A DNA stretch of 64,000 bases. Source: Chrysomallon squamiferum. Taxonomy: Eukaryota; Animalia; Mollusca. The stretch covers positions 15,066,001 through 15,130,000 of the forward strand of contig CM022672.1 of the NCBI GenBank assembly GCA_012295275.1, in the 5' to 3' direction. Position 1 is the stretch's first letter. Every line of letters begins with the position of its first letter. The position numbers and the translations under genes are program-made. The notes under the pieces are model-generated. The model worked only from the letters and a program-made list of their open reading frames with translations. It had not been told where the DNA came from and did no database searches. This document shows, piece by piece, positions 8,606 to 44,924 of this stretch.

Positions 8606-11600
8606 TTATAGTGGTCGACCATAACCCCTACCCCTGGGACCCTTAGCCGAGGATGCCCCACCACTCTCTTCTCCGCCAGACTTGGGGTTACGAATAGTTT
8701 CATCAACAGATATTACTAGACATGTAGCTTCCGCTGCTGCAGTTAAAGCGTTGATTTTAACAACGGCTGGTTCCCATACAAATGCTTCTAAGTTGTCTGT
8801 GATGTCTTCCTTCAAGATGTTTACTCCCTGCCATACTCCACCTGAAACGTAATTGACAAACTATTCAGACTGGGCATTAAGTTTTAATATGAAATTTAAA
8901 TTTAAAAAATATATGTATATACACACATGCACAGACACACACACACACACACGCAGATATTTATTAAATATGTAGTTAAATCAGCAGATTATTAGGAGTT
9001 CAGATGCAGAAAAATTAAGTTAGAAAATAAGATTTAAACATAATGAAAATGGTGTAAAAGAATGGGTAACTGGTCAACTTGTACAGATCTGCTGTGAATT
9101 TATATAATATCTGAAAAAATGGCCTTTCAAAGAACAGCACAATGAGTATAACTGTTTTCAGTGAATAATGAATAATTCTGTCCATTTGAAAAATACCTAA
9201 CATGTTAACAAAATACACATCAAAAAGATATACATCTTAAATTAATGCAATGCTACATACCTTGTGCATGGCTTTGTCTGAGTTTGTTGAGAATGTTGGT
9301 GGCATCAAAGCCTGCGTTGTCACACAACTGCCTGGGAATAATCTCCAGAGCTTTGGCAAAAGCAGCAATAAGTAATTGTTCTTTACCAGCTATGGTGTGG
9401 GAGTAATCTCTGAGATATTTGCTTAGTTCCATCTCTATAGCTCCACCACCTACACACAGACAAAAAAAACAAAACAAAAAAAACCCTATTAATTTCAATT
9501 TGTATACTAAATCTTAAAAACTAAGCCACCATGTAGAATACAAATCTACATCTATCTATGTGCATATGTATGTATATGTTTTAATAAAACATACAAATTT
9601 CAAAAAATCCACTAGAACAATAACTTCAATAAGATATTAACCTAAATAAACAAACTATTTACTTCTTAAAGAATTTGGATTAAATTTCATTAACCTCCAC
9701 AGAACATCAATGAACAATTTTCAAAAATCACATTTTACAATTACATTAGGTACCAATTAACAGCATTTCACAAACCTTCAGCTTCCATCCCTCTGGTGAG
9801 TATTAACAACAGAAAAAATGACTAATGATACACATTTTATAAGATCAAAGAAGATTGGTACAGAATTCCTGACATATAAGAAAATGGGTAAATACCTGCA
9901 ACTACAGCGTCGTTTTTCAGAGCTCTTCGTACAATCATAATAGCATCATGTAATGACCTCTCTGTCTCATCCATGAACTGCTCAGCACCACCTCGCAGTA
10001 TCAGGGTGCATGTTTTAGCTTTCGGGCAACCTTTGAAGAAGTTAAATCTGCAAGGCAATAGTTTAAAAATTGTGAAAGGACAGTTTATTTACTGATAAAA
10101 ATGTTTCTATGTTGATTTCAATGGAATTTTAAAATGCTCAAAAATAACAATGAACAAAAAAAAATAAAACCACAAATATTTTAAATCAATTACATTTCTG
10201 AAAATTACAACTCCTTTAGACAGAGAAATTAGTCCTAAAATATATAATATGAATCAGTAAGAACCAAATTTATAAATTTTGCTATCGATATTTCAGCTGT
10301 TTAAAAAACAATGATCATAATTAATGAAACTGCTGGTATTTATATACAAAATTTCAACAATAACAAAAATGACAAAATCAGAAACAAAATAAATTACATG
10401 GATTTCTCATACAGATTAACATTTGTCACTCTAAATTGTGAAACTTATTTCAAACAGTAATATATGAGCTGGAAGAATAAAACAAATTACCCATCACACC
10501 CCAACCGAAACTACTGCCAGCAATTTTCAAAGTAGACACGACAGTTAAATTTCTGAGATTCTGATAAAGTAAGAAAAGTACCTTTCTCCACCAACTTGGG
10601 TTTCTTCAAACACTTCACAGGTTCCTAGGACATCATCAGTAAGTTGTTGCACGGTGGTCTGTATGGACCCCCCGCAGGCCTTCATTGTTCTTTTGAGATC
10701 CTCCTCAGGTACTCGGCCAGCACAAAACATGTCTCTTTAACCAAAATTAGTAATTTAAAACACCATGCTATAAAACTGATGTAAATAATTATATGCCAGC
10801 TGGATGGTTAATTGAAAATTTAACTAACTGTGGGAAAATTTTATTTCTTTTTAGTGAATTTCATTTATTGTGAAAAGTTGTTTAAAAAAACTTATTTCTG
10901 AAATTGTAGATCAACCTGTAACACATTCTAACATACTGATTGAACTTATCTGAATTAAGGTTATAATCATTATTTCTTTGTTTTCTTTACCTAACTGTAA
11001 TTGATATATAGTTTAATATACTTTGAGAAATGCTTTAACACACTGAAAACAGTTTAAAATTAACAATTATAGGGCTCCATAAAAATGGTTAAAGGTGATA
11101 CTGATCATGACAAAGGAATGCTCCCATGAAACTGGATTTTTATATATATTGTAGGAAAATAATTTGCTTTATCAAAGCACAGTGCTTCATCAACAGACTG
11201 TGGAGGCATTTTTGAAAAGAATCAGGAGCAATTTCCTGCATTTATAAGTGAAAGGGTTTCTACTAGTAACACATCATATCCTGTCTGTCCATTTATTTCA
11301 TTGGTTAAATCTTCCAGTGAAGTATTCATCTTCATAACAATTTTTCCTACTTGTTTTTAAAAAGAAATTATTTTTAACAGTTTTCTGTTTTTAATGAAGT
11401 GGGCTCATGGACTATGCATAGTCAACAATTTCTAACACACAATGCACAATGCAATACTCAAACAAAGTGACCAAGCACAAATTACCATTTTCCAAGTTAC
11501 TTTTTCTGTTTTTATCCAATTGCATCTAATTTTATTCCTACCAACTGTGCTCAAGCAAACAGCCCAGTTGGAATGAAAGAAAACACAAATCAAATAAAAC

Positions 11601-14600
11601 ATGCTGAATGCATCAACTTGGAACACAAACCAAAACTTACTGGGTGTTTGTATCTTTCCTAGAAAAGATCCAAATGAAGTCAAATTTGAGGAAATCTGTG
11701 AAATATTCACATGTCTGAAGACAGGAATACAAAAAACCATGTTCATAAAAGTATTATGGAGCTTCCTATAAACTGATCAGGAGCATTTGCAAGTGAGTTT
11801 TTCTATTAATAATACATCCATAAATACAACATGTGGAAAAAGATCAAGGGTGAAGTAAAGAAAAGTTATCCTGCAACCCATGAATGCCAGCCATTATGTA
11901 GTATACACACCTGTCAGCAAAGTACTGAGTTGCTACGTCTCCAATAGGCAGTTTAGAGAGAACCACTTTGGCTCCACTATTACAAATCTTGTCAAGTTTG
12001 TCATATAGAATCTTCCATTCAGCATCTACAATAGACTGGTATTCCTGAAATTAGAAATAACATTATGTAATAAAGTTGTAATGTTTAAAGAAAAGAAAGA
12101 TACTAAAAACTGTTTTAAAAACCAGAGATTCAGTTTCTTCTTAACTGTATTATCAGTTTCCCATTTCTGGCTGGTTGATGGGTTTATTTCACTTCTTCGT
12201 TTATGCAATGATATTACATGAAAAGAAATTAGTCAGCCTTCATGTATTTGATGGTTGGAAAAAGAATTAAACAATAATTCGAAGTAATAAAAGGTATTTA
12301 GAACATTTGATTGTACAGTCGTAAACCAACTAACCATTTGTCTCAATAAATTACTTATTGAATGCATAAAAGCAAAAGACAGAATTTGGTAACTTTTTCA
12401 GACCTCAACAGTATCAACTCTGACTTCTGCATTATCTTTTTCAGCTTTCAGTTCAAGCTCCACGTTCAGAAGGGCTATCTTAGGTTTCTCATACTGCTTC
12501 CTCTGCATCTCAAACCCAGCATAACTGAAAGTCTTCTTAAATGCAACTCCAGCAACTAGGAAGGAATCCTGCACATATAAAATAATATATTCAAGCAACA
12601 GGTGAATGAATGTATCATGTCAAAAATATTATTCACAATCAAAACCAAACAAATAATTTAAAAAAAAAAAAAAAAAACTGTCTGAAATAATGGTAAAGAT
12701 TATTAATGATTAAAGAAAATAAATGGAAGTAGTGCATTTTGCCTTAATGGTTTAAACAAGCTATCACCAAGCTCTAACAAGAGTGCTAACCTCAAGAGCT
12801 CCACCCTGTACTTTCTTTATTCCTATCATATTGAGAGGCAGCAGATCATCTAGCATCATGACAGCATCACACACCATGTTAGAAAAGAATCCTTTCTGTG
12901 AGGCAACCAGTTTTGAACTCAGAGCAGTAGCAGCACATTTCTCTAACAACTTTCTCTGTTCTCTACAATTATGAATAAAAACAGGTCAGTTATCTTCTTT
13001 TTTGTTCACATCTACATCTCTGTACTGTGGACAGAAAGCCATTGTGTATCTTCTACTGCAGTTTCATTTGTTGTATAATTATTTCATAAGACTATTCATA
13101 CACTTTACACCAGGCAATACTAATCACAATTGGGATATATCTACTAACATCACAGCTCACTGCTTAATTGCAGAAAATGACTATGCAAAAATTGTACATC
13201 AAGCACATAGCATGAAAGGTCTAACATCTAAGGTAAGACTAGGCATAAGGAAAGCTTACTACGAGTAAGAAGAAAAAATCAGTATTATGTAGACTTGTGG
13301 ACATAGGCATATACAATCCACTGTGCACGATCATTAAAAATCATTAATGCTGATGAAAGTATTTGATGAACTTGTAAAAATAAGCCTACATGTACATTAA
13401 AAATGTGCAGTGTTCGACAAATTGTACATACAGAGTTTGTTAGGTAAACACTGAATAGAACTTAACATGATTACACCTGTAACAGTTCCTTGATTTCAGA
13501 CAAACATATTTTATTTCAAATAGTAGACTGTTAATCTGAATTTGTTTGAATATATAACTATGCAGTTTATTCAGTGTTCACACAAGAAAATTAATATAAC
13601 CATTTAAACATCCTACTGAAAATAATTTTTCAAAAGTATCATTAGAACATTTTGTTTTAACACTTTCCTTTTTTCCTGAAAACATAATTTTTAGCAAGTA
13701 AGAACTAGGCAGAGTAAAACTTACTTCATATCACTTTTCTTTGTTTTTACAGAAATTTCTTTTGTTTTTTCCACAGCCTGAAAAATAAACATGATTTTTG
13801 CCAAATAAAAAATCAAGAATTTGGTCCATTAGGCAAATGTGCAAAACATTTAAAAGACAAAATATTTAATCAGATGAATGTGACAAAATATAATTATACA
13901 GTTTCAGTTGTTAATCATTATTATTTTGCCAAATAAAAAAATTTGTTTTTACAGATTTTCCATTTGTTTTTGTCACTGCAGTGGTGAAACATTTAAAAGA
14001 CAAAATATTTAATCAGATGAATGTGACAAAATATAATTATACAGTTTCAAATCGTATGATTTTTGCCAAATAAAAAATCATGGTTGCGAGGAATTTGGTC
14101 CATTAGTGCCAAATGTCACTGCAGTGGTGAAACATTTAAAAGACAAAATATTTAATCAGATGAATGTGACAAAATATAATTATACAGTTTCAGTTGTTAA
14201 TCGTATTATTTTGCAGACTTCAGATGAATTGTAATTACTAAAAATTTGCAGTTGTTCACATTAGAAACCACTTGATATATTATTCTGTTTAAGTAAACGT
14301 GTATTATGTCCACTGCATATCAAGATCAGATTTCAGTTCAACAGATAATAACCTCCTAAATGTAGCAACTGTTTCTTCAGGTTCTTTTTGTGACTTAATA
14401 CTTACTAAATTTAATGCTTTTCTATATGCCCTGATAATGATTTGTGGGTGAACTCCTTCCTCGACATAAGGTTTGGCCTGTTTTAGAAATTCCCCTGCAA
14501 GCAATGTTACAGTAGTCGTACCATCTCCAACCTTTCAGAAAATACAACAGAAGAAAATTAGAACAGAAAATCTATGCCTGCAAAAGTTCACCAATAACAA

Positions 14601-16020
14601 ATGTAAATTTAACAAGTCAGTGCTGTGTACAGAAAGGAATCAAGAACTTACTTCATCTTTTTGTAAATTTACGTTCAAACTGAAATATTGATAACTGTGT
14701 CTGTAAATCACTGCAGTGTATGTATTTAGTGAGGAATTAAAAGGAAATGATGAAAGAATATTGATTTAATAAAGTTTTGCTACATACCTCAGCATCTTGA
14801 GATTTAGCAATGTCTACAAGAGTTCTTGCAGCAGGATGTATAACGTCTAAGGTCTTTAAAATAGTAGCTCCATCATTAGATATTGTGGCTTTTCCTATAA
14901 TTAAAATATAACATGGAACATGTATACTTCAGGTAATCATTTTTTTTTTTTTTTTTTTTTGAAAACTTGTCATAATTGTACTCAACTACCTAAGTAAGAA
15001 AAATAAAAGAATTGTAGCATGTATTTATGAATCCAGATATTACCTCCAGAATCCACTATAAGTTTGTCCATCCCACGAGGACCAAGAGTTGTACGTACAG
15101 CATCAGAAACAGCCAGACATGCACTTATGTTGCTGACAATTTGTGGGACACCCTGGGAGGTGTCTGTTCCCTCCTTCAGCAAGATGATTGGTGCTTGCTG
15201 AAGTTAAAATTAAAAATATCAAGTGTTTATTTTACATTATTATTCCATACACATCATGTAGGTGTGTAAAAGCTAAGAATTTGGAAACATTTTCATAACT
15301 ATATAAATACATTTCAATCCTAAATGTGATTCTCAATAACATTCTTCCATTTTATTAGTCATTCTCCTTAATGTTTTAGGTCTCATGTATTTGAAAACTG
15401 GTTTCTCCTTTAACAAACTCTACTTTGGAGTTTGGGTTTCTTTATGAATTCTTATCCTAGCTGGTGTGCATATTCGTTGGCTTATCTAAAGTCGTAAAGA
15501 ACAGATAACTTTTGTGGAATTTTATTCAGTTTACATAAGCATTAGTTTGGCTTAACATATTTCCTAAATATGTATGGCATGTTATAAAATAAGTTTATTT
15601 CATATATATATATGATATAGATTTTCACAGCTAACATTAGACTAGTGGGGAGAACTTTCTTTGGGCTCTGTCAAACACAACTTCTGTAAATTACTGATGT
15701 TTAAAATATCAGATTTATATTACGGGTGTGTTACTATAAATCTGATGGAAAGACAAAAGTATTCTTAAGATGATTAATTCTTACGTACAAACTGTCATTG
15801 TGTCAAGTAAGTACGACGAATATTTTATTGATATTTGGCAGTTGCTATGATACTTTTAAAAAATAATATAATTTGAATGAACCATCAGTGTAAAAAAATA
15901 AAACATTGTCTATTTTAAAAAATAATAACTGTTTCTGTTTATTTTTTGCATCATGAAAATTGTTATGAATTAATAGTCAGATTGAAGAGATTAAAATCCG
16001 AACACATTTCTACTCACCAT
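8606..16020 (-). CDS. CCT7: T-complex protein 1 subunit eta (CCT7), 12 coding exons, ~547 aa
   Basis: Minus-strand exons 16018-16020 (ATG only), 15044-15197, 14788-14894, 14406-14531, 13725-13777, 12791-12962, 12404-12568, 11911-12044, 10582-10734, 9896-10047, 9261-9449 and 8606-8841 total 1644 nt in frame. Eta-diagnostic motifs: [75 protein letters not shown]. Confidence 0.97.
13790..14215. repeat. Three-copy tandem repeat (period 143 bp) in CCT7 intron
   Basis: Identical core aaacatttaaaagacaaaatatttaatcagatgaatgtgacaaaatataattatacagtttca starts at 13844, 13987 and 14130. Confidence 0.9.
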
Positions 16021-16036
16021 TTTGTCGGAATGTTTC

Positions 16037-16051
16037 TTTCTGGAAAATTCC
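16037..16051. promoter_or_regulatory. Heat-shock element just upstream of CCT7 ATG
   Basis: tTTCtgGAAaaTTCc is a perfect three-unit nGAAn inverted array, 17-31 nt upstream of the start codon. CCT genes are established HSF targets. Confidence 0.6.
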
Positions 16052-16370
16052 GATACGGGCGATAACTCTAACGCATTTCATCAAATAATAATTAATGACA
16101 TTGTTATTTACGTTTCGTCTTTATTTATTTACTTATTATGAATGAATGAATGAATTTTTAAATGTCTCATCTATGATGCACCAGAAGCAGTTGTTATCCA
16201 TAATTAAAGGGCTATTATGTTAATATTATGATCGTTAATTAGACATAATTTCATTAAACTATTTTTAAAATTTTAGAATTAATTTATGGGATATGATGTT
16301 TTTGAATCTATTTGCCCGCATACATATATATAGATATAGATATTATTTATTTCAGTTTTACGTTGCAATA

Positions 16371-16406
<36 letters not shown>

Positions 16407-16435
16407 CTCTCTTTATTTTATTTATTTGTTTATTC

Positions 16436-16501
<66 letters not shown>

Positions 16502-17213
16502 TTTATTTATTGCATACCATGAAGGCACAAAGTCGAATGAAATTTAAAAATAGGAATTCGAGATCAATGTAAGAGTTTATGTGCATGAGCGAGCGCCTAT
16601 ATCATAATGTGTTTTGTTCTTTAATATTAAATGCTTTTCGAACATAATACCCTGGTAAGTAGCGTGCAGTGTTTGAATATCTAACAATGCTTATATATTC
16701 AACTGTCACATACTGATTAGATTTACGTGACTGCCTTGAAAGAAGTCAAAACGAAACCAGGTTCAATAACAGCCTGACAAATCGTATTATATATATATAC
16801 ACTTGTAATACTCAACTCTGGTTGATAACAGTAAACTCAGGCTATATTTCTCGCGGTTGTTATGTTTTGTTCAGACTTGCATTAATCGAAGCGAGAATTG
16901 CCAACATTTGCGTCAGTGGTAACAATAAGGCGTAAGTTATATATTGTTTGTTCTGGATTTTATTTTGTGGATGGATAACGAATGTATTTGAAAATGTTCT
17001 TCATGAATATGTCTGTTTAACAGAATCAGATTGGTAAGATAATTCAGAATTAAGGACATAAGAAAGTGCACGGCCGGCATTATAAATTGATCACAAAGAG
17101 AAATTGCTGTTAATAATACTAATAATAATTCACTGAGCTATTACCGAAACATAAATACTATCAGGTCGGGAATAAAAGAGAAATATTAATTTGACCTCTA
17201 ATACTATATCAAA

Positions 17214-18750
17214 ATGGATTTTTCGAAATTTCGACAGTCAGGTGATCTATCTGATATCACAGTAACCGTCGATGACTCGGAGTTCAAACTTCACAAATTC
17301 CCGTTATTTGCGAAGTCGGATTACTTCTGCAGTTTGGCCCGGTCTGGATCGACGGATTCTACGGTTGAACTAGAATCATTTCCAGGAGGACCGCAAGTAT
17401 TTAGTCTTGTAGCTGACTTCTGCTATAACATGCCGGTTGACTTTACCAAGAACAATATCGTATACATAAGATGCGGAGCCGAGTACTTACGAATGAATGG
17501 GCTTGATAACTTGGCAGAAATATCCGAAAAATTCCTCCACGACACAATTACATCAGCAAAGATGAGTAGATCAACTGCAGGAATAATAACCCTTTTACTC
17601 TACTGCAGCACTGTAGAGAAATTAGCAGAGAAAACAGGAATTGTATCCCACTGCATTGAAGCACTGGTTGACTGTTGGCTAAAACCGCCAACAAAATTCA
17701 GTCCTACATTCAGAAAGCCTCAACTAGATATTCACACTGACGATCTGGCTTTGAAGAACTTGTGTTCACTTCCAAGTATTTGGTTTGTTAATATTCTTGC
17801 ACTGGGACGTGATAAGGGTGTTAAGTTGTCTGACTTAGCAGAGATGGCAGTAAAATATGTGTCATCTGTTCTTGAACGTGCAGAAACCGAAGACCCGAAG
17901 AGCAGATCCGAACAAGGAATAGCTAAAGCTATCGAAATCAAATCAACATCAACAATCGACGACAGTGACATCGATTTAAGCACTATATCAAAGAGTCCAT
18001 CTATTATTACGCCACTAAGTCCGTCGCTTACGTCATCAGAAACACGTAGTTCATTAGTGAGTTCACCAGCTTCTAAAATCATCGACTGCAGCTTCAAAGA
18101 GAGTAAAAGAGAACCTGCTGCAGTCAGAGATCCAGGGAAAATTTTGGACGCTGTGTTGATGAGTCTACCAGAGGAGGCTTACTCTGGACCATTCATGACA
18201 ACTGAATGGTTGACGAAGGTTCTGCGAGTTGCTACAGTTCGTGGGTGTTCGTGCCGAAGATTTTTAGTAAAGATAGCAAGTGAAATGCTAAACACGCTTT
18301 CGCCTGAAGATCTGTGCATTATATCGCCCTCGGTGCTTCACGACATAGTGGTGGAGTCGTCTGGTCAGGATGGAGTGAATGCGGAAAAAGCTGCAAAACT
18401 TGTAGACACTTACATGTCAGAAATGGCGAAAAAAGGAGTACTGACAGCCGAGACGTTCAAACTTCTTGCTTCGGCAGCGCCACCTGATTGCAGAAGCAGT
18501 CACGATAAAATATATGATGCTTTGGAATACATCTTGAAATCAGGTTGGTATTACAATATATCCAAATTTCCATCACCACCCCAAAAGGTTTTAGATCCCA
18601 ATCAATCCCAGTATGACTGATAAATATTATCACCATTTCAATCAGTTCTTTTCTCTTTGATGAAACTGTGATCTGTTACTAGTCATTATTACTGGGATCC
18701 AAAAGTTCAACTTGCTTTAAATATAAATAAATAAATAAATATTATTTTAA

Positions 18751-18808
<58 letters not shown>

Positions 18809-19781
18809 AGAAAGACAAAATTAGCTCGGACCAGAGGCAGGAATTGCTGGACATTGTGAACTTTAACCTAATGAGTGAAGCAGGCCTTCAGAGGGCGTGC
18901 GATTCTCAGCTCGTGCCACCGTCTTACGTGGCCAGAGGAGCCCTCAGTCTTTGTGCCAGACTGAGAGCGGAACTCGATTCGGTTAAGTATATCGCTCAGA
19001 TGCAGGAGCAGGAACTCCAGAAGTATCATCGGCAAAAGTCGGACACGTCACCCCCGGGAAACGAACTCACTAACATGAAGAACCGATCAGATTCAGGTGG
19101 GTGTTTTTTTTTTTTTTTTTTTTTTTTGTTCCACTGAGTTTATATTTCTCTAGAAATCTAGAAAGAAAGAAAACAAAAATTATCATATATATTACATAAT
19201 TTTTGTTTTATTTATCAAATATGTTTTAAATTCAGTCTTTTAAGCGATGAACCAGAAATTTTAAAATTTATAATTATAAAATATATTGAATGGTTTCCTA
19301 CGATTACATCATAATATAACATTCATTTGTTAGATAAATAATAATGTGTTCTGTTCTTTTGAGTTATTTTAAAATATACATCTGTTCGTTTTTCGTATCA
19401 ACGTAGTAAATGTAATCTGACAGTGACTTGAACATTTATTTCTACACAGGTTTCTCTGAGATTCCTGCTAAAATCAGTCCCACATCAACCGACGCTGTCA
19501 AGGCTGCTCATGACGTTCTCTCTGCAGCTAGAACTAAACTGGCCACCCAGGATATTTCGAATTTCAGGCCTGTTCATCGATACCCTCCACAGTCCACTGC
19601 GTACGGCTACGTGGGAACAGTCGAACATGACATCACTTTCGAGGATGAGATGGAATTCAAATTTGATCGATCTTTCAGAAGCCTCGACCAGAGAATCAGA
19701 CAAAGGCCAACCTTTACAAGTTCCAGTTCATCAAACCATTCCACACCTCGGTCTTATTTCCCTTATTCTTACCGATACTAA
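17214..19781 (+). CDS. BTB/POZ + NPH3-domain + coiled-coil protein (NPH3/RPT2-like, NRL family), ~649 aa
   Basis: Exons 17214-18543, 18809-19096 and 19450-19781 total 1950 nt in frame. NRL-type BTB: SDITVTV..FKLHKFPL..KS...FPGGPQVFSLVADFCY...NIVYIRCGAEYLRM..NL..SEKFL. NPH3-domain motifs: LCSLPSIWFVNIL...GV, ILDAVLMSLP, LTKVLRVA..GCSCRRFL, AAKLVDTYMSEMA..LTAETFKLLASAAPPDCRSSHDKIYDALEYILK, then ISSDQRQELLDIVNFNLMSEA..RACDSQLVP and LRAELDSVKYIAQMQEQELQK. Confidence 0.85.
18749..18805. repeat. (TAT)n microsatellite abutting a splice acceptor
   Basis: TAT run directly before CAG (18806-18808) of NPH3-like exon 2. Confidence 0.9.
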
Positions 19782-20184
19782 CTATAAACGATGCGTAGAT
19801 TTTGTTATATTTACCGATATTGGTTCGTATATATACTTCTATATAATAATAATTAATAATATTACTTTAAAACCTGAGCATTGTATTTAAGAAAGAAAGA
19901 AAAGAAAAAAAAAAAAAAAAAAAAAAATTGAAAATAAAAAAACCCCAAAACAACAACAGAAAACAAATGAAGAATAAGAAAAATTTCAAACTGAGTTTAT
20001 AATTTTTGAAGAATCAACAAAAGTGTGGCTTTTATTTATTTTTATTATTTTAAATTTACAAACTGTAACAGTCAAACATTCAAGTCTACGCACTTATCTA
20101 TTTACCTTTTATGGACATACATATTCTGACATGCCACTGTAAACGTACTGATGGCATTATATCCATCTATCTATTTATCTATCT

Positions 20185-22394: not shown

Positions 22395-22520
22395 GGTAAT
22401 TTTAAACTCTCCAATCAAAATAGAGCTTTCATTGAGTCCTTTCAAATGAAAAGCGGCAATAAGAAGAGCAACTTAGAGTATTTAAAAATATTTTTTGTTT
22501 TTGTTGTTTTGCGGAAGCCA
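22395..22520 (+). promoter_or_regulatory. PRC1 promoter with G2/M-type elements
   Basis: CHR-like TTTAAA at 22401, CCAAT at 22411, reverse CHR TTCAAA at 22441 and ETS-like CGGAAG at 22512, all within ~135 nt of the ATG. These short motifs can arise by chance in AT-rich DNA. Confidence 0.4.
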
Positions 22521-22533
22521 GCGCATATAAACT

Positions 22534-25500
22534 ATGGCGAGTTTTAGGTAAGTATTTAAAATACTAAATGTAGGATGTAAATTTAGTCATTTAATTTATA
22601 ATTAAATAATTGGATTGTGTTTGCAGTTCGAAAATTATAAACTTAACCGTAGGCGTATACAGCTGAGGATTCCAAAATATACGGGGTATACCAACGTTTA
22701 TTTTCCAAACAAAAACAAAGAAAGAAAAGAAATCAGCTGTATCAGTTATAATCCTAGTGTTAATCTATTTATTATTATCTAAAATATGTAAAACAGCAAT
22801 ACATTGATTATTTAGATAGTTATGACTCTCTGATTCATTAAATTTACAATTGAATATCATGAATTTGAATATTTGTGTCTTGTCTATCCGCGGGCACCAG
22901 AACTCGGCTTGTGCTTATTATAATATTAATTATTAGTTATAATATCAGTTTTGATATACTGCTATCAGATAATAATAATGACTGACAGCATACAAGAACT
23001 GAACAAATCGAATTGTACTGTATAGTGAAGATAAACAATTGAATTACTAAATTAGATTTGACAAATTGTATTATTCTGTTAACACAATAACAGTATTTTA
23101 AGCAAATTAATGCCATTTATAAATAACAATTCATACTCGTCTTATTCATTGAACTGTTGTAGTAGTGGTAGTAGTAGTAATAATAAATTTGTATGGATGT
23201 AAATTGAACTGTGAACAAATTTCCATAATTATTGTCAAGTCCAGCAGCTTCGACAAACAATATATTTGACTGCAGTAGCAAGAGATTTTAATGTTTCCTT
23301 TTTGATGTAGATGATAATAACACATATACAGTATTAGCTCTATATTTTTCTTATTAATATAATATAAACATTTTTACCTTTCAGTCCGGAAACAATCCGG
23401 CTAGGAGTGGTAGAAAAACTTGATGTTGTTTTTGGTAAACTGTATGAGATATGGACTGATATTGGGATCTGCGAGAGTCAGATGGAAGAACGAGCAGGAG
23501 CAGTTCTAAAACATCTTGACAATCTGCTTGATGAGATGGTTGAGGAAGAGAGTGTACTGAGAAATGAGATTCAGCAGAATATTCAAGAACATTCAGCAGA
23601 AGTTGCTGCACTCTGTACAGAATTGCATTTACCACAGTATAAGGTATTATTATTAAATTCTCTTCCTAAAGCTGTTATAACACACAGCAATCTATACCAA
23701 ATTATATTTTCATGTATATAAGATATTTCATGAAGATTTCACATTGGTTTCTCATCCTAAAATTGTATTAGTGCATTCACCATTGTACAAGGATTTATTA
23801 TTTCAGAACTGTTTCTTCTTACCCTAAAAGTATTCTAACCTGAAAATATGTCAAGAATGCTTAGAAAAGATGTCTGCACTACAGAATTACATTTACCACA
23901 GTTAAATGTTTTAATTACAGTTAATGAATGAATGAACAGAATATGTCAATAGCAAAATTTAAAGAGCTACTTTGTGATGAGTTGAATTGAACTGAACTTT
24001 ATTCATACTCAGGCTGTAGTCTGTGGCAAGTGAGGACACATTCATGTAGAATTTAATATAATTATTGCAGTTATAATAGGATTGTGGATTTACAGTAATG
24101 TGCATAATAATAAAAAAATATATCAGCTAGAGGATTTACAAAAAATGTTCACGATTAGATTACAGAAAATAGAATGTTTTCTAAGGACACCAGCTTTTTT
24201 AGAGTTAAATAATTTACAAAACAAGAATATACTTGATTTACATTGACAAAAAAACATTCTTAAAAACATATATATAAATATATAATGAAACTGTTGTCAT
24301 GGACATACTGGGCACAATGGACATATTCTGTTTTCTAATGGTATATATTACCATCTTCTGCTTTCAATAGGAAGATTACCATTTGAATGTCTAAACTGTA
24401 ACAGTGGGCATCAGTATTTTTTCTCTGTAAAGTATAACATTGAAATATGTCTCAGATGCAACTGTATCTTTAAATAGTTTATAAATACTGATCTATAAGC
24501 CTTGAGTTAATGCATGATTCTAACATGATTTAGAAGCACTAGTGATAATCACATATATGTACAGCCAACATCATTGAGAACAGATTTAGCATGTAATATC
24601 AATATGTGGTTTAAAATATTGGTGATATTATATTCAGTAATAGTCTGTACACTAGACGACTAGTAATGATAAGTACTTTCCCATGATTAATTAAAACCAG
24701 AAAACAATTATTTTTACTTTTATAATAATATACACTGAATAAAGTACAAGTTCTCCATTTAATAAGTTCATTGGAGTAGATTTCCTCACAGGTAATAACA
24801 ATTTCATAACCTGGTTACATAATTTTTCCAAAATCCCCAGATTTTCCTACCATATAGAAAAACTGGTAAAACCATGTCAATTAACTTAGGTTGACACTGG
24901 ATGGACATCTTTCTTGTGTCATGTCAAAGCAGACAGTGCAGGCATCTTTGACCTGACTTAGCATATCATAAAATAATAAAAATGGCTGCATCTGTCTGCT
25001 TCTTGGCTTCCATCACATTTCGATTCTTCATCCTAAGTTGGTACTTTGCACACGCAGCTCAGGTATCTGTGGCAGGAGATCCAAACCTAAGATTGAACTT
25101 TGTAGTGGAACACTGAGTAGTAGAGCGAATAACTGACATGGTTCTTGAATAACTCGTATTTTTTTTGATTCTGATGTCACTTGGCAAGTACTTCCAGCCT
25201 GGTGTCCCTCTACGACCATAGTGGCTGGCTCTGCAGGTAAACATCTGGAAGTGGGCCATGACTAGCTCTTCCTTTGCCAACTTTACAAGAACCACCCCTG
25301 CTTTCTGGATGTGCATTAATGTAATTAGTAATAATTAACCAAATGAACTTTGAACTTAAAACAAATAACACTAATTCTACAATCTTTCAGTGAATTCCAT
25401 TCTACCAAGATTCATATTAAATCACTTTAAATAGTTTCTATCAGCCTTTGAGTTGTTTTTTGAGCACATCTAGGATATCTCGGGGTTGATGTATTGGTAG

Positions 25501-28500
25501 TTGCAGTACATCGTCAACAGTATCATTAATGGCATTAGAAGCATCCTTGATGGCATTAGAAGTAACTGTTCTGTTTTTCATCTCGGTCTCTACCTGAACA
25601 GTTCATTCAACAAATTCCATTTCAGATTGAGTACCAACTGCCGACAGTTCTGTGGAAGCATTCCTATTATCCTCGGAATACGCACATTTACAAAGTTGAT
25701 CCACATGTCTTTTACACACAAAATCTCCAACTTTCACTCTGTAGGTAACAGGCCCTAGCTGACACAGTACTTTTCTACTCAACCACTTGTCAGATCCTCT
25801 GTAGTTCTTCACTTGAACTGAATCTCCAATATTGAACACTCATGTTTTACTTACTTTTGGAATAGTTCTCTTTTTAACAGTTCTCCAAACAGAACGCAAG
25901 CTATTCAATCTTGTTTTTTCTGCTTTCCACATTTAACAATCACCTCAATTTGCCCAAGGACTGGTACCACTTCATCTGTATAAGTTTTCAACACAATTGA
26001 TGTTGATTTCAATACACTGTTTTCTTCAATTTTTCCTGATAACTCTTATTAGAAATTATCGAAACAGAAGCACCAGTATCTACTTCCATTTTGAATGGCA
26101 CACCATTGAGTTCCAATGAAATTTGAATTTCTTTCACTTTCATAGATTTTGCTGAGAAAATCATTGTCATTACTTTCCATTGCAACCTCTTTATTTTCTA
26201 GAACAGCTTTTGTAATTTCTGATTCAGTTTTGTTACTTCCACTTTCTTCATGAACAACATGAATTTTGAAACCTGTTTCAGATTCAGTATTTTCACTTTC
26301 CAAATCATTGGTACCACTTTCTGATTCCGTTAGGTCCCTATCAGAATCTTAATTCACAACATGAAATTTAGAGTTTTTCTTTTTCAACTTTTCAAATTTC
26401 TTTTTTTCTTTTTCCATCTGTTTATGTTCCTGTCTTTCTACTTTTTTCTTTTAATTTTGACATTTTCTACTCTAATGTCCTGTTTCATTACACTTTTTGC
26501 CTTTTTATAAAACCATGCATCATGATGGTGATTAGTTTTACCACACCGGAAGCATTCAATGACAGAAACTTTGTGGAACTTTTCTGTTTCTGACTTAATT
26601 CCAATTTTCAGCATGCCAGTTTCTCTAGCTGCCATTTCCATACTAACAGCTATTTGCAAGGCTTTCCTCAGTGATAAGTCATGTTCAGAGAGAAGTTTTT
26701 TCTGTATTGACTTTTCAGACAGACCACAGACAAAAATGTCTCTTAATGCTTCAGTCAAAAATGCATCAAATTCACAATGTTCTGTCAGTTTTCTTAATTC
26801 AGCCAAAAATCCACTTACAGTCTCTCCAGGCTCTTGTTTCTGTTGATAGAATTTGAACCGTTCCGCAGTCACCAAAGGTTTTGGTTTGAGATAATTTCCT
26901 ATCAAGGTTTTCAATTGTTTGTAAGTCTTACTTGCCGGGTTCTCAGGCCAAGTCAGATTTTGAATCAACCTGTAAGTCTTGACACCAGATACAGACAACA
27001 AAATGGAACGTTTCTTTTCAGCATCGTCTACATCATTCGCCAACAGATACTGTTCCAAATGTTCAATGTATTCATCCCAGTGGGAACTTTTTATGTCAAA
27101 CTCTTCAACCTTACTACAGGTAGCCATATTTCATAAAGAGTTAATTTCAGGAAACAGTTCATCTCATCCTCGTTGGCAATTGTTATGTTTTAGCATTAAA
27201 ATGTAAAGTTCATTTCAGTTTCCAAACAATTTATTTCATTTCAAAATGGCTACGTACAAAAACTAACATACATTCACGATGATGTCATATAATTATATCT
27301 CCCTTGTTCCATTTCCCCTAAACATTATAAACTGTAACAGTGTTAACCATAACACCATTTAGATACAGCAAATCCTGCTTAAACTTCAAATAGTAATATC
27401 ATGTGTTTCAAGATACAGCTTTAATCTATTATTTAACACAGTGGTTTAGAGTTTACCAAGGCATCTAAGTAATGTAATATGTATGTCATTTTCTAGAGTA
27501 TTTTTATCACCACTTTTATACATTGGCTTGATTATACCTGACTAACCATGAGTCAAGGAAGATATCCATTTCAAACACTAAATTAAAAGGTTTGACATAA
27601 ACATATATCATCAACAGTTTGCTTAATAAATTAATTAATTATATTATCTAGACCTGAAGCTTTGTTGTTCTTTGCATGAAGCTAACTAATGGTGTAGCAT
27701 GTGTAATTTGTTTATTCACTCTTGTTACACTGTGCCTGCGACTGTGCCATGTTGGGCCTGTAGTTTCCACTGCATGTCTGGTGTGTACCTGTCAGTACCA
27801 TAGTTCTTACAATTAATGCACTTCACATCAACAGTTTGCTTAATACATTTATTAATTATATTGTCTGGACCTGAAGCTTTGTTGTTCTTGAGATATTTAA
27901 CAACTATAAATATTTCACTTTCTCAAACTGTGGTAAAATCTGCTTCTGGAGTGGGATCATCACTAATGTTTACATCTTTAAAGTCTTGGTACAGTGCTTC
28001 TAAAGGTGGTAAATTACAGTCAAGTTTGTTGTGTTTTTAGGAGTGTACAAAAAGCTCTCATGCCATATCTGCTAAAATCTTTAATTTAATTTTTTTATTT
28101 TCCAGTTACGTCTTAATATTATATTCTTGTACTGTTTACTTGCCTTTAGAAGTCATTGCTTGTTATTTATTGTTTTCCTATTTTTGTAATCTGTTCTGGT
28201 TTCTCTGTGTTGCATTGACTACCTAACTATGCCTTATTTCTGCAGTTGGGGATAGATCTGCTTCTAGTATATCCAAATATATTTACTGCAGTGTTCACGA
28301 ATAAGCGACTGACACTGTTCACCATGGTATTAAGCTACCATACAACCGAATCTTTAAACTTAAACCATAATATGTATTCAGATGTGTTTTGATAAACTAG
28401 GTATGTGCTTCTCAGTTTAACATGTGATTTTTCATTTCTGTTGTTTGTATATACTGTATAACCTGGTATTTCTACATTATCAATATCTTCAAGTTTGGCA

Positions 28501-31500
28501 TCTACTAGGCACAAAATATCATACTGATTAAACATTTTTTTTATAAATTCTGGTATATGCAGTTTTGTTTCCAAGCCACAAGCATGAAAAATAAAATATT
28601 TACAGAATCAGAAGTGTTGACTGTATTTGTGTAACCATGGTTGTTCGATACTTCAGTCATTTCATTTTGATTGTCACCAGTGTCAATCTTCCGGCTGTCT
28701 TAAGCATGGTCTTCTGTCGGTGAGGTGTAATTGCAGGCACACTTGTTCGGATTTATAATTTGTGGGATGTATTATGGCTTGTATCTGAATAAAAAGTTGG
28801 TCATACCACTAATGTCACACGGATTCAATAAATCTAGCCTCAATAAATGTTTCTGTGTTCCACAGACTCATGATTTACTGACACCAAAATGAATTCTTTC
28901 AAAACTTCAGAATTTCTTCTGAGAATTTCTCTGACTTTCAGTCTTGGTATTTGGTGGCATAGTGGTGTTTGCATATGATCAAATGCAAAAGTGTTTTCAT
29001 GTTTCATTTGTTCTTTAAGCAATTAATTTAGTACTTGCTCTGCATCCTTGTTGTCTTTTTCTAGAATTCAGTTAAAAATCAGGTTGTGTATGAATATGTA
29101 ACACATTTTCACAAAGATCTTCATAATAATGTTAGAAACTGTCAGTATCATTATAACATTTGGCTTACTTTTTCCTTCATAATTTCAACCACATCTGCTA
29201 TTTTCTTTCTTTCTACACAGGATTCTTCAAAGCTAGTATTTACAAACTTTATGGATTTTTCTGGATAAAACAGACTGGCTTTTAAATAATTATTACTGTT
29301 AGGAAAAGTAATCATATTTATTTATAATTCAGCAAAAGGATGGCATGTCCATGATACAAAGAGAGAAGGATCTCAGAGCCAAACTGGATAGCTTGAAAGC
29401 TGAAAAATCGGAGAGATTGAGGATTTATAAAAACTTCAAACTTCAAGACCAGCATCTGTGTGACGTCCTTCAGATGACTCCCTACTACATCCCATCAGGA
29501 ACAATCCCCACCAAGGAGCAGTTAACTGAACTGGAAAAACACATAGCAGCAAGGAATGTTGAAAAGGTTTGTTAAAATACAGCACAGATGATTTCATGTT
29601 AAAAACTTAAAGGAATGGAAGGCAGTTCAGTGGTCAAAAGTGTTGATGTAAAGCATAATTTCACATGATTGGACTGTTTTAGTTAGACTTTTTATGTCAG
29701 AGTGAGACAGAAAGGTTTCCTAATACGTTTTATAAATGTACGTGTGACTTTTTTCTTTTTAGTCAAACTGTCAGCATTAGCTTTTTTTCAATTTTAAAGT
29801 AACTATTCAAGTCCAAACTAAAAATTTATTTTTATTTAAATATTATAGATTGATTTGTTTGACAGCATATGCATATTCATTAATAAAGAGTCAGATTACA
29901 TTAATTAAATCAAAGGTTTGATGTTATTTTAACTTGTAATATGTATTTTGTTTTTGTTTTTGTAATAGCGTGAAAGACAAGCTAAGTTTACATCGACCAA
30001 GAAAAAGATTATTGAGCTGTTTAACTTACTGGAGTGCAACCCAGACACATCGTTTGAGAGGGAAATTGTCTGTGAAGATGATGATTCTTTTATACTGTCA
30101 ACAGAAAACATGACGGCACTGAAGAGTCTGCATGAAGAGGTACAAGGGATGATTTACAGTGTCCATTTACAGCACATTAGTTATAACAAAATCTTTGGTT
30201 TATCAGACCAGCACAGTGTTTATTTATCGTCTATTTCTACCTTAGTTCTGATTTTTTAAATATTAAATGATAGTACCTAACTTGATAGTGAAGAGCTTAA
30301 ATATAAATATGTATTATCTTATGTCAGTAAGAAAACGAAACAGTTATATTTAAAACAGTGGTGAAATTTTTAAATTTAACTCTTTTAATTTAAACTTTAA
30401 TTTTAATTTTTCCAGTATTGTTGCTGATTTCTCTAACAACGTTTTGTATTCTCAAAAAAATAACATACAGCAAATATGAATGCTGCCATTTATTCTGTTT
30501 AACCATAATAGACATAAAAGTTTCAATGAATTAGCACTATATTTAATTATATATATTTTGTTATCCTGTTTGTTTAATTACATCTGTATGATAGCCAATG
30601 TAATTTCATGTGTGGGTATCATTAAACATTCATTCATTCATTCATTGAATTTTATTCTCTGTAACTTCTTTTGTTTTGAGTATATGGTGTATGGTAGAGG
30701 TATATGCTAAGCACACTTGTGTGGGTAAATAAGCAAAATCTAGTAATGGCAGATGCAAAAAGTAAAAACAAATTTGTACAGTATTTGCTAAATAGACATT
30801 CTCATCTCGAAAATTATGATTTGCGTTATTTTCTAAAATTATAATTTGCGTTATGTTATATTCAGTTAAAATATTGTGCACATTTTACTAACATATTAAA
30901 ACTTATCATACTGAACCTGCTCTGCTGTGATATTTGGAAAGGGATATTTAGCAACCACATATTTTCTCCAAAAAGTAGTTAGAAAAAAAATTGGTGAATT
31001 ATGGTAAGTTGTAAATACATTTTGTGTTCAGAAATTTATAAGGATATTTTTTTTCTCTTTATTTTTAAGCTTGAAAATAAGTATGAGAACTTAAAACAGG
31101 CCACAATGACACTGTGGTCAGATCTGTATGCTCTCTGGAACAGGCTTGATGTATCAGATGAAGAGAGAGAAAAATTCAAAGAAGGCAAAGATGGACATAA
31201 ACCATTAGTTCTGGATGCCTTGCGAAAAGAAATCGCTAGGTGTGAACAACTTAAATTTCAAAACATCCAGCGTTTTGTTGATGGCATCAGGAGTGAACTT
31301 GAGGTGTTGTGGAACAAGTGTTACTTCAGCAAAGAGCAGCGAGAATTGTTTAAATTTATGCATGAAGGTTTGTTTTTTTAGACATTGTTTAAACATTTGA
31401 CCTTTCTTCATTTCTGTTTCTGTAAGAAAGTGAATTGTAGAAGAAGAAAAAACCCCATATCTGTTAACCTCAAAAACTCAATCAAAAGGATTCCAATGAT

Positions 31501-34500
31501 TTCATTATTTATAAATTAAATGTAAAATGTATAAAATGATATAAGAATTCAGAATGTTGTCTTTGCAGATCGATACACAGAGGAACTTCTCAAAGTACAT
31601 GAGAATGAACTGGAAGAGGTGAAGAGTTACTACAACACATACAAACAGCTGTTCATCAAGTTAGAAAAATGGGAATCTTTGTTCCAAGACAAATTGGAAC
31701 TGGAGGTTATTTGATAACAATATTGATATATTTATATTCCTCACATTGCTTTTCAAGATTTAAACGAAAGAAAGAAATATTTCTGTAATCTGTTTTTGCT
31801 GTCGTTACTCTGTTATTCAAATTAGAAAAATTGAAATTTTTGCTTCAAGACTAGGTTTTTTAATAATTTTATTTTTATTTTCTTCACATCACATTAAAAA
31901 GATTGAAGCAAAGAGATGCTTGTCTTATGAAATGTGTTTTTGAGGTCAATCATGGTGATATTAAATGTAAAATTGAATATATTCTGGTTGTATCAAAATG
32001 GTTTTTGCTTATGGGAAGATGTTTTAACTTTTAAAAAAGAAGAAATGCTGGTTTTTTATTAAATGTAATGAGGTAAAATTTGTTGTGAATTTAATATTTA
32101 TCATCATGGTCCTTTTTTATGCAGAAATTGTTAATTTATGTATATTTTTTATTGTGCAGCGAAAAGCTATGGATCCTAATCGTTACAAAAACAGACGTCA
32201 TAACTATATATTACAAGATGAAAAGGCAATGAGGAAAATTTCAAAAGAACTTCCAAGGGTATGTAAATATCTGAACAGTGAAACATAGCAATTGTAATAT
32301 ACCAAAGATATGCTGTGTTGTAAACATGTTTACAATCTATTTATGGTCCTTAATCATGTATTTTAGAACATGTTAAATATCTTATTTGTTCCTCGCATAA
32401 CATCACTGCAGTGTTATAAAATAAAATATAATTTTGGCCATAAACTTAACAACACAGCATCTATAATTTACGAAAAATACTCAATGTTACCTTTTTACAA
32501 TTGGTATGGTCCATAATCATTAAAGCATCATATACTTTTACATATAAGAATATGATAAAATATATTTAATACATTCTAAAACTGTTATGTATCTTAACAG
32601 GCACAACAGGGCAGAAGAAGTTGTAAAATAGCAACAACAATTTACAGAAAAAAATGCACTGTTATAAACATTTTTTAATTTTCAATCTCATTATCATGAT
32701 TATGGCATCAAATACCTGTGAATTTAAAACTATTTTAATCCATTTTTAATGCCTCTACAGAATAATGCATTAATTGTGGATACTGAATGTTACAGGCAGA
32801 GGAAGATGTAAAGGAAGCAGTGACTAAGTGGGAAAAAGATCACCAGAAAACCTTTCTGGTAGAAGGAATGTCTTTTGTAGATTATGTTAAAAAGAGGTGG
32901 GATGATTACCATGAAGAGAAAATCAGAGAAAAGGAACAAAGGGTAAAATCAGCATATCTGTGTGTGTGGAGAGAGAGAGAGAGATAGACAGACAGATAAC
33001 CAGTTTGTGAAAGCTGGATTAATTAAATAATTCATGTCTTATTTACAACCATTTACATGAGATATGTCTTAGGTATCAGTGAAAGTTCAAATATTTTTGT
33101 CTGTCTTGATGAATTTCTTTTTCATACACACACCCATGTGCAATTTAGGCAGAAATTTTTATTTCAAAATACATTATTCTTTTAAAACTAAATCCCAGTG
33201 TCTAAACAGTAAAATATGTTATTTGAGTTGAATCAGCAAATTAGCAATATCAACATATGTCAAGATAAGCAGTTTTTCATCCATGTAGAAATAGTTTCTT
33301 ATAATCACAGTCCTTAAGTTATGCAAAGATAAAAGTAATACTGTATATTAAAAATACTTTTGTTATGATGTTAATTTCCTGAAGTGTAAGTTAATGCTGC
33401 TAGTGAATTTTGAATGTTAAGTGCTTAGATGTAGTGCAACATTTGTTCTTTGTTCTTCAACAAGTAAGCATACACATCAAATATTTTATAGCAAAAAGCC
33501 AAGGCTAAATTAATTCAAGACGAGATGGCATTCGGCAGTAAACCAACGACACCAGCAAAAAGAGCCATGTGTGTTACTCCAACAAAAACCCCAAGCAAAT
33601 TTAGAAAGGTAAGTTAAAATTAATTATTTTTAACCATATATACTGTACATGAAAATAAATTAAAAACATACAGAGCATGCCTTTTAATGTAAATTAAGAT
33701 TATGATTATGATTTTATTTTTACATTTAGTCCAGTAAAAGAAGTGCAATCTTAAAGACTTGCATATTTTCATTTGTATTTGTCTGATTTATTGACTCATA
33801 AAATATTAAATGTGTAAGGTTAGGATTTAGTTAAATGATTTACTGTCTTATTGGTAACAGATTACCTCAGATATGTCTCAGATGTCGGTGAAAGTTCGAA
33901 TCAACTACAGCATGAAGGTATCATTCTTCAGGACTGTGGATTTTAACAATACTTCTAATAACTTCACAACAATTTGTCACTTACCACTTGTTTCTGGGAA
34001 TGTACCAGCTGGAAATTAATTTATGACTGCTATCATCTAGTTAATTTTCATTTTATTAAAGTGCAAAATAATATTGTATTCTTCCAAATGATTTATTTGT
34101 TTGTTATGAACAGACTTTGCTAAAATAACAACATTGAGATTAACATTTACTGGGACATTTCATTAAAAAAGATACATTAATGTCAAAATTTTGTAAAGAC
34201 GTCTTCAGTCTGTTTGCTTTTTTTTCTCATTCCTCCATACAAAATATACTGACATTCAGCAAAGACTGGTAAAATAAAATTAAAAAAAAAAAAATTATTT
34301 ATATTGTTCTTAGTAGAGCCAATTAAATACTTTAAACATTTATATATCATTGATAAATTTACCTCTGGTTAATTCCCAGCTGTACACTTTTTGCACATTC
34401 ACAGTTAATTATGTTAAACTAATGATTTTGCATGTTGACACAGTTGAATGAAACAAAAACACCTGGTTCTGTAAGCCGTATTCAGCACTCCAGCATTTTT

Positions 34501-35037
34501 GCTTCACCATGTGGTCGAGCTCCTTTGTCATCAAGTAAGGTAACCGACATATGAAATACGTTTTAAACCTTTTTTTTAATAAATAGGAAATGTACATATA
34601 AAATAAAATAAAAATTACAAAGATATTTCACTTTACAAAGATAAGCATAACATTATGGTGTTTACAAAAAGAAAATGATAATATTAGTTTTAACTGTCTA
34701 AGATACAAGATACATCACATTTAAAATTTCTATTTTGCGGATAGACCATCATCTGCAGAACTAATCTCTTTTTTGTTTGAATTTTGAATCAGATTTTCTT
34801 GTTATTATTTCAGGCACCAAACAGGTCGTTACGGAGGCGATCAAAGCGCCTTGCACGCCAGGTGCTAGCAGAGTGTAAGGCTAACAACACCAAGTCAAAC
34901 AACACAATATTCAGCCAGACCACGGTAAGCAGCAACGAAGGGAATAGCATCAACATGAGCCTAGCGTCCACCGGGTCATATCAAGATTTTGCTGTGTGTA
35001 TCATTCGTAAATTTTTCTTTTAGTCTATACCAGAATG

Positions 35038-44046: not shown

Positions 44047-44496
44047 CTATGCTTGCACCTGGACCTTGAGTAACATCTTCAAATGACAAGTCATATCATC
44101 ACACTTTGCTGGTTCATGATTGGTACTGCCAGGCATCCAGTGTGATGGAGGTTTAGGAAGTACTTTAGGTGAAGGTGGATCACTGAATTTGGCACCAGCA
44201 TAGGCAACAACAGACTTCTCTTCAAGGCTGGGTTCAATCGTTATTGATGGGCAGCGAGCTCTTTTCTTAGCCCTTTCTCCTTCCATCATAACTTGATGCT
44301 GACGATTGCGATTTGACACCAATGTTTTATTTGGATGCTGCGATTTTGTCGATGCATTTCTCATGTCATTCTCTTTGGACCCAGAATATCTTTTCTGCTT
44401 CAAATGATTAAAAGGTCCTTTTAACTGATGCCCCATTTTGACATTTGACCTCTTTTTGTCCTTGATATTTGGCATAGCCAGTGTAGACAAAACCAT
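44047..44496 (-). CDS. PNRC: Proline-rich nuclear receptor coactivator (PNRC family), 149 aa, single coding exon
   Basis: C-terminal [22 protein letters not shown] (PNRC signature) followed by [12 protein letters not shown] (LxxLL). First ATG at 44494-44496; a possible acceptor lies at 44505-44507 and a 5'-UTR donor near 44844. Confidence 0.93.
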
Positions 44497-44924
44497 TTGA
44501 AATTCTAACAAGCACCACACCAAATATTTGACTAAATATTTGAAAACACACAATTACTCGATGTTCGTTCTTGTAATCCACAAAAAATACCGTTTTCTGG
44601 TTGTTGTTTTGTTTTTTCAAAGCTTTTTCACAAATTATTCGAATAAGCTTTGTTTACATTTACAAATGAAAGATGGCGTCTTCGTCTTGTTCTTCTTTCC
44701 GATATTATCGTCGGTAATTGAACAAAATTCTCAAAAACGTCAACTTTTTCTTCAACGAATTAAGTCTTTAAATAATTCCTAGCGTCTTTACAAGAAAAAT
44801 AATTCGAATCAAAGATTTTTAAATTAAAAAAGTCATAAAAATACCTGGGCTTTACCCTCTCTACTCTTCAAAACTAATCTCCTTCCGTCTACGTTTCTAC
44901 TCCTGCTGATGTCAGCCAGTCATA

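Follow-up and report, generated by a model that had tools for sequence, protein, structure and literature searches.

Background

The NPH3/RPT2-like (NRL) family counts over 30 proteins in Arabidopsis, and the biochemical job of its NPH3 domain is in dispute, the contending views being that it is a scaffold, a CUL3 adaptor or a GTPase. Phototropin and PIN, the partners of plant NRLs, are themselves plant proteins. In the literature the family is called plant-specific (PMC1257465, PMC4327156, PMC11313873, PMC12201645) and described as confined to algae and land plants (PMC9491448), with a 2005 survey recording BTB-NPH3 proteins only in Arabidopsis among 17 genomes (PMC1257465), and a 2024 paper states that the NPH3 domain is not found in metazoans. 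In plant NRLs a C-terminal RxS phosphosite is reported to bind 14-3-3 (PMC8531357), lipid binding is reported for NPH3 (PMC8531446), the proteins are repeatedly described as cortical or polar (PMC12201645, PMC11313873, 10.64898/2026.08.17.745269), and a trimer formed through the LIP and coiled-coil motifs has been proposed for Arabidopsis NPH3 (10.1101/2024.06.17.598829).

We describe here an NRL gene of the mollusc Chrysomallon squamiferum, found in a window of 64,000 nucleotides (contig CM022672.1, positions 15,066,001 to 15,130,000), the window being the whole stretch of DNA that was analysed and the one to which our coordinates refer. We found no published description of animal NPH3 proteins in the open-access literature, supplements aside, and transcriptome or domain tables may list such genes. 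What is new is a branch in animals, old and widely distributed, of a family regarded as plant-only; what was already public is a set of automatically labelled sequences that have seemingly gone undiscussed. The branch extends across nine phyla and contradicts the plant-only view. That animal NRLs went unnoticed is probably because the animal genomes of the 2005 survey, those of vertebrates, insects and a worm, are without the gene.

The gene and its locus

A first-pass annotation of the window, made from the sequence alone, had proposed an intact 3-exon reading frame of about 649 aa between animal CCT7 and PRC1 genes, and had named RNA-seq as a check on it. Both structure and position hold. 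The coding exons, all on the forward strand, lie at 17214..18543 (1330 nt, aa 1-443), 18809..19096 (288 nt, aa 444-540) and 19450..19781 (332 nt, aa 540-649 and the stop), giving 1950 nt for 649 aa plus stop, and both introns are GT..AG. One RNA contig of 2330 nt (X2 record 7) aligned at 16888-18543, 18816-19092 and 19447-19835, with record positions that fit the exon joins precisely, and a second (X3) also runs from exon 1 to exon 3. Contigs covering the coding region came from two of the three RNA runs aligned to the window, and transcripts of CCT7 and PRC1 are present in the same runs. From these public contigs the transcript extends over at least 16888..19879. The 5' untranslated part of exon 1 (16888..17213, +) is a minimum extent, as X2 record 7 starts at 16888 and X3 record 10 at 16897 and contigs cannot show the true start; the 3' untranslated part (19782..19879, +) is likewise a minimum, X3 record 12 ending at 19879. 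Among the coding differences from other runs 12 of the 14 classified are synonymous, the classification being based on the 40 of 66 rows listed.

CCT7 (TCP-1 eta; 8606..16030, reverse strand) is head-to-head with the NRL gene, and the mapped transcript ends of the two (16030-16888) are less than 0.9 kb apart. The first exon of CCT7 stops right at its ATG (16020-16018), with a GT donor directly after it. PRC1 (22452..34980, forward strand, 3' end approximate) belongs to the MAP65/ASE1 family. Among the contigs aligned to the window none bridges the whole CCT7-NRL-PRC1 stretch, so physical linkage rests on the window assembly. None of 20 metagenome loci has a CCT7 or PRC1 match beside its NRL gene, but most of them, at under 5 kb, are too short to bear on synteny.

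Elsewhere in the window there are a Hint-module (hedgehog-like) gene segment that occurs twice in tandem in almost the same form (133-1659 and 4005-5987), a Gag-like reading frame with a weak PNMA match (25441-27130, reverse strand) together with other retrotransposon-like fragments within a PRC1 intron, and a PNRC-motif gene (44047-44553, reverse strand).

Domains and conservation

Exon 1 alone passes the curated Pfam cut-offs for both BTB and NPH3, the profile search that the first-pass annotation had suggested. The BTB/POZ domain (aa 3-102; 17220..17519, +) matches PF00651 at 51.9 bits (E 1e-13), with a model pLDDT mostly above 90. It is followed by a helical extension (aa ~100-155; 17511..17678, +), recognised from model helices, which is equivalent to the alpha6-alpha8 extension of NRLs and would occupy the 3-box place of BTB-BACK proteins. 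The NPH3 domain (aa 178-442; 17745..18539, +, running on into exon 2) matches PF03000 at 57.7 bits (E 1.9e-15, cut-off 27) over profile positions 2-231 of 258; it is all-helical in models and has a poorly conserved disordered insert at aa ~221-300. In exon 2 a long C-terminal helix with coiled coil (aa 481-516; 18919..19026, +) falls, by alignment, at the position of the LIP and coiled-coil motifs of NPH3, and coincides with a predicted trimer interface in the Gigantopelta orthologue. The BTB and NPH3 homology runs along the folded length of the protein, in agreement with the colinear match over BTB, NPH3 domain and coiled coil claimed earlier. Exon 3 encodes a tail of low conservation with conserved islands, among them a candidate basic amphipathic stretch (aa 610-624), and ends in an aromatic/Arg C-terminus without the terminal RxSxS.

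The LHKFP, PGG and FCY motifs of the BTB are invariant in the alignment between the window protein and plants. There are 44 positions at which residues are kept in both kingdoms, the thresholds being 70% or more of 53 plants, 80% or more of 36 molluscs and 60% or more of the 26 remaining animals. One of the 44 is P30, which corresponds to P46 of ENP, and Y434 aligns with the tyrosine of the plant DGLY motif (ENP Y409); mutation of P46 or Y409 is reported to harm ENP (PMC12201645). The polar residues D14, H27, R427 and D431 are also conserved across plants and animals. The tail is another matter, as it has no sequence in common with plant tails: a terminal RxSxS/A is present in 31 of 50 plant proteins and 0 of 36 mollusc proteins, and in 35 of the 36 molluscs the C-terminus is Arg plus an aromatic or other bulky residue.

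A post-BTB profile built from 50 land-plant sequences scores the window protein at 84.9 bits, with 7.3 for the best shuffled control in five rounds, so the likeness to plants is not a BTB artefact. In profile-profile comparison of post-BTB regions, with profiles cut from one joint alignment, animals match land plants at 99.7% probability and sponges match land plants at 98.5%.

Distribution in animals

The first search gave 93 proteins, about 70 of them of the animal clade at 30-78% identity, followed by plants at about 25% over the full length. The closest relative comes from another gastropod, Gigantopelta aegis, with 79.5% identity along the whole protein. Sequence searches and name look-ups together gave named relatives in Mollusca (gastropods, bivalves and Octopus), Annelida (Capitella, Owenia), Nemertea, Bryozoa (Bugula), Platyhelminthes (Macrostomum, flukes and the monogenean Cichlidogyrus), Rotifera (Adineta), Hemichordata (Ptychodera), Cnidaria (the octocoral Dendronephthya) and homoscleromorph Porifera (Corticium, Oscarella). 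The first-pass annotation had envisaged an ancient horizontal transfer or an old eukaryotic family lost in model animals; the antiquity stands, but the spread, which reaches beyond molluscs to nine phyla, was understated. The Pfam NPH3 cut-off was passed by 12 of 27 relatives scanned, eight of them from the animal clade and four from the charophyte clade. The copies of sponges, octocorals, flukes and bryozoans score under it, and custom profiles detect most of them. In Macrostomum, Capitella and the schistosomes these searches returned one gene or near-identical copies, and such animals offer a route to the core function of NRLs without phototropin or PINs.

No named match from vertebrates, arthropods, nematodes, echinoderms or fungi was among the matches listed (150 of 701 for phmmer, about 8,000 candidates per word search, 30 proteins named), a result that does not of itself show absence. 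Of the 17 proteins that a profile search seeded with deep members gave, most are Oscarella-like paralogues and none is a named member from protists or fungi. None of 69 pattern matches in viral contigs and none of 15 in prokaryote genomes was confirmed as an NRL relative, and at this sensitivity nothing points to a viral or bacterial vector. The Atlas search returned plant-dominated NPH3 clusters only, and nothing when PF03000 was skipped.

Six NRL clusters of Oscarella lobularis (P0162, P0278, P0282, P0284, P0287 and P0288) have one 3.31-Mb longest contig in common, which suggests that the gene has expanded in tandem in homoscleromorph sponges. Several copies are present in Corticium as well. 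The Ptychodera protein P0102 and the octocoral-clade P0116 and P0110 have in common a C-terminal domain in the last 110 aa, without a Pfam match and absent from spiralian copies. Several sponge copies carry a separate conserved C-terminal domain, and homology between the two is unsupported (hhalign probability 0.3%).

Phylogeny and origin

In a FastTree tree of 220 rows the mollusc sequences largely follow known groups and the animals fall outside the land plants. An unrooted IQ-TREE tree of 30 chosen rows has land plants (99/98) and streptophytes (95/89) as groups without animal sequences, and so places the window gene outside the land-plant NRL clade. All 17 animal rows are on one side of a branch supported at 94/90, which is moderate support for animal monophyly, with sponges sister to the other animals (81/90), and the quick version of a 57-row tree agrees. 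Ptychodera groups with octocorals in the trees, apart from other bilaterians. In AU tests a grouping of animals with the NPY clade, which includes many of the top plant matches and was the sole land-plant subclade so tested, was rejected (p-AU 0.009); constraints joining animals with land plants (p 0.053) and molluscs with greens (p 0.093) were not. The first-pass annotation had proposed a phylogeny to choose between nesting within green NRLs and a deep sister clade, and it is the latter that is favoured.

The orphan pair of P0194 and the metagenome locus L012 forms a third NRL lineage. In L012 (1-1937, GC 54%) a BTB-NPH3 gene is fused to LRRK2-type ARM repeats and is disrupted by two frame breaks and one internal stop; repeats of this type are known from choanoflagellates and stramenopiles. 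In the tree that includes this pair a long stem with 100/100 support separates the streptophytes, with the third lineage nearer the animals, and this lineage may be the key to rooting the family. P0094 and P0095, putatively chlorophyte-like, were left out of the last tree on account of weak post-BTB scores (16 and 8 bits).

The introns add some detail. Intron 1 is in phase 1, after LKS. Two bivalve loci and a further locus of spiralian type have it at the identical point, and many spiralian DNA-derived open frames stop fitting there. Heterobranch- and rotifer-type copies have extra introns, and an octocoral-like locus is a single 570-codon frame. The scarcity of introns, which the first-pass annotation had set against the intron-rich neighbours, is not a signal of transfer here and no sign of a recent event, because the place of intron 1 is common to bivalve and other spiralian loci and other animal copies have more introns. 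Plant NRL frames break 4 nt upstream of the spiralian intron 1 (window 18543-18544), presumably at a phase-0 intron. The two positions are near each other and we do not count them as common; coincidence or intron sliding could account for them.

The absence of an aligned contig joining the NRL gene to its neighbours is what could be said for plant contamination or mis-assembly, an explanation that is refuted by orthologues on chromosome-scale mollusc scaffolds and to which we give practically no credence. The Gigantopelta protein, on a scaffold of 91.7 Mb, is 79.5% identical as against about 25% for plants, and the spliced RNA contigs were in two of three runs together with CCT7 and PRC1 transcripts; the earlier judgement against contamination was therefore sound. 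A late horizontal transfer from a plant or alga, specific to molluscs or spiralians, is largely refuted too and is very improbable. It could draw on the higher scores of mollusc copies on the land-plant profile (58-96 bits, with 9-41 for sponge or octocoral copies) and on the failure of the AU test to reject molluscs with greens, but there are members in sponges, octocorals and a hemichordate, and these outscore plants on the animal profile (which was built in part from octocoral and hemichordate rows but without those of sponges). The AU test described above rejects a place next to NPY, and the exon GC of 0.45 resembles that of the neighbours (0.43 and 0.41).

We infer that the last ancestor common to sponges and eumetazoans very probably already had the family. 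Ancient inheritance followed by many losses and one very early cross-kingdom transfer, in either direction, are about equally probable, the trees being unrooted, and animal NRLs thus pose a clean question of ancient transfer between plants and animals versus loss. One form of such a transfer, in which a BTB-BACK-like adaptor gave rise to the NPH3 family on the animal side, with a single move into the green lineage, we consider unlikely. It is argued for by the more canonical BTB of animals (in 20 animal-clade sequences the Pfam match begins at position 1-3, with E 1e-6 to 1e-14, and in four charophyte-clade sequences it begins at position 7-11, with E 1e-3 to 1e-7), by the hydrophobic-x-D loop retained in sponge and octocoral copies, and by the long streptophyte stem with the BTB-NPH3-ARM third lineage nearer the animals. 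Against it, the tree is without a root and the Pfam BTB model is likely to be animal-biased. Were it true, the plant scaffolds for phototropism and PIN polarity would descend from a holozoan gene.

Structure models and self-association

There is no solved NRL structure among the 57 PDB sequence matches, all of which are BTB-only. The exon-1 model (mean pLDDT 83) has the BTB, the helical extension and a helical NPH3 domain with its disordered insert. Residues 1-155 align with the SPOP BTB/3-box at Z 14.9 (rmsd 3.3, 138 aligned), and the N-terminal half aligns with KBTBD2 at Z 14.9 (rmsd 3.7, 230 aligned) and with the A55 BTB-BACK at Z 14.6 (rmsd 2.9, 184 aligned). Foldseek agrees on CUL3 adaptors as the closest folds, and BCL6 and ZBTB, which are non-CUL3 BTBs, align nearly as well. 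The NPH3 domain of the Gigantopelta orthologue is modelled as all-helical with no strands (pLDDT 89). Taken alone the NPH3 domain gave no Foldseek match at E <= 0.001, and its best VIA Z, 8.8, is within the helical background, as is the alignment of KLHL11 with the NPH3 model (Z 6.6, rmsd 8.6, 183 aligned). A Pfam BACK match was found in 1 of 27 relatives, a fluke member, where it is weak and below cut-off (E 7.5e-4, in the C-terminal half of NPH3).

The Gigantopelta model has a 35-residue C-terminal helix of high pLDDT. The C-terminal half of its NPH3 domain with the coiled coil, modelled as a trimer, scored 0.68 (pLDDT 81) with 0.00 for the best of three controls, and runs agree in at least 96% of contacts; the score is for an orthologue fragment, and coiled coils self-pair readily. 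Calibration of this score, for two copies only, had 21 of 30 microbial pairs and 17 of 29 eukaryotic pairs reach the mark, with 0 of 23 and 0 of 30 single chains respectively; among the seven eukaryotic pairs that have no older solved relative just one reached it. The interface coincides with the equivalent of the LIP and coiled coil described for NPH3, and the helix and coiled coil at aa 481-516 are predicted to form a trimer.

Possible functions

The best explanation of the data is that this is an NRL of an animal branch probably dating from before the split of sponges from other animals, and that it would oligomerise with itself into a scaffold, placed either at the cortex of the cell or on trafficking membranes. 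We put the probability of this at about 0.5. In such a scaffold the helix at aa 481-516 would, on the models, self-assemble as a trimer, and by analogy with plant NRLs the BTB-NPH3 core would set position and cross-link the oligomers while the disordered tail would bind acidic lipid or a membrane client, so as to hold or sort membrane proteins. Membrane binding is thus a prediction carried over from plants. The plant trigger, phosphorylation of the terminal RxS by phototropin followed by 14-3-3, is absent, so the regulation and clients in animals must differ, and a scaffold role is more likely than a role in light sensing.

We rank the membrane-associated scaffold ahead of two other functions, and the three are not exclusive. 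As a CUL3 substrate adaptor the protein would bind CUL3 by the BTB and helical extension and recruit substrates for ubiquitylation by the NPH3 domain or tail. The fold of the N-terminal half is nearest to CUL3 adaptors, but BCL6 and ZBTB come close to them. The hydrophobic-x-D/E loop motif, which is the CUL3 contact of SPOP/KLHL adaptors, occurs in most sequences of the sponge clade (10 of 12) and in all of the octocoral/hemichordate clade (4 of 4), but in just 4 of 36 molluscs, and the window loop, S-T-D, is degenerate. NPH3 is reported to bind CUL3a (PMC3439871), but the role of CUL3 is disputed even for plant NPH3, with CUL3 reported as not recovered with NPH3 in transgenic plants (10.1101/2024.06.17.598829). 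An adaptor role is possible but doubtful for the window protein. Less probable again is that the NPH3 domain works as an atypical GTPase and an effector of the RAB/VAMP kind, as described for Arabidopsis NRL5, with the animal protein acting in vesicle trafficking by that activity. NRL5, NPH3 and six further NRLs are reported to hydrolyse GTP (PMC11313873), and D14, H27, R427 and D431 are kept in both kingdoms; however the window protein has no P-loop GxxxxGK[ST] or NKxD motif, the NPH3 domain models as all-helical rather than alpha/beta, and the available text of PMC11313873 does not name the catalytic residues.

Comparison with known systems

With regard to plant NRLs (NPH3, RPT2, NCH1, NPY/MAB4/ENP/MEL and NRL5), the window protein has the same order of BTB, helical extension, NPH3 domain, C-terminal coiled coil and disordered tail, colinear over about 500 aa, with the LHKFP, PGG, FCY, DxY and P motifs conserved and a predicted trimer at the LIP/coiled-coil position. 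It differs in being only about 25% identical, in lacking the N-terminal extension of the plant proteins, its BTB beginning at residue 3, in having PSYVARGAL for the plant LIP sequence LRVVVQVLF, in the terminal RxSxS (0/36 molluscs, 31/50 plants) and in the last NPH3-domain intron, which is 4 nt away and in a different phase. From the phototropin-regulated NRLs in particular (the NPH3, RPT2, NCH1 and NPY clades) it is set apart by the absence of the terminal RxS 14-3-3 site.

The BTB-BACK CUL3 adaptors (KLHL11, KBTBD2, SPOP and poxvirus A55) also have a BTB fold followed by a helical extension, with structural alignments of 184-243 residues. However the window protein has no kelch or MATH domain, the sequence likeness is limited to the BTB, and the NPH3 domain alone gives no match above background.

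Orthologues in other animals are annotated as 'root phototropism protein 2-like' (Gigantopelta), 'phototropism 2-like' (Octopus) and 'BTB/POZ At3g08660' (Dendronephthya), names that were transferred automatically. By both of its defining domains, BTB and NPH3, and by its coiled coil the window gene is an NRL, and it belongs outside the phototropin-regulated and land-plant clades.
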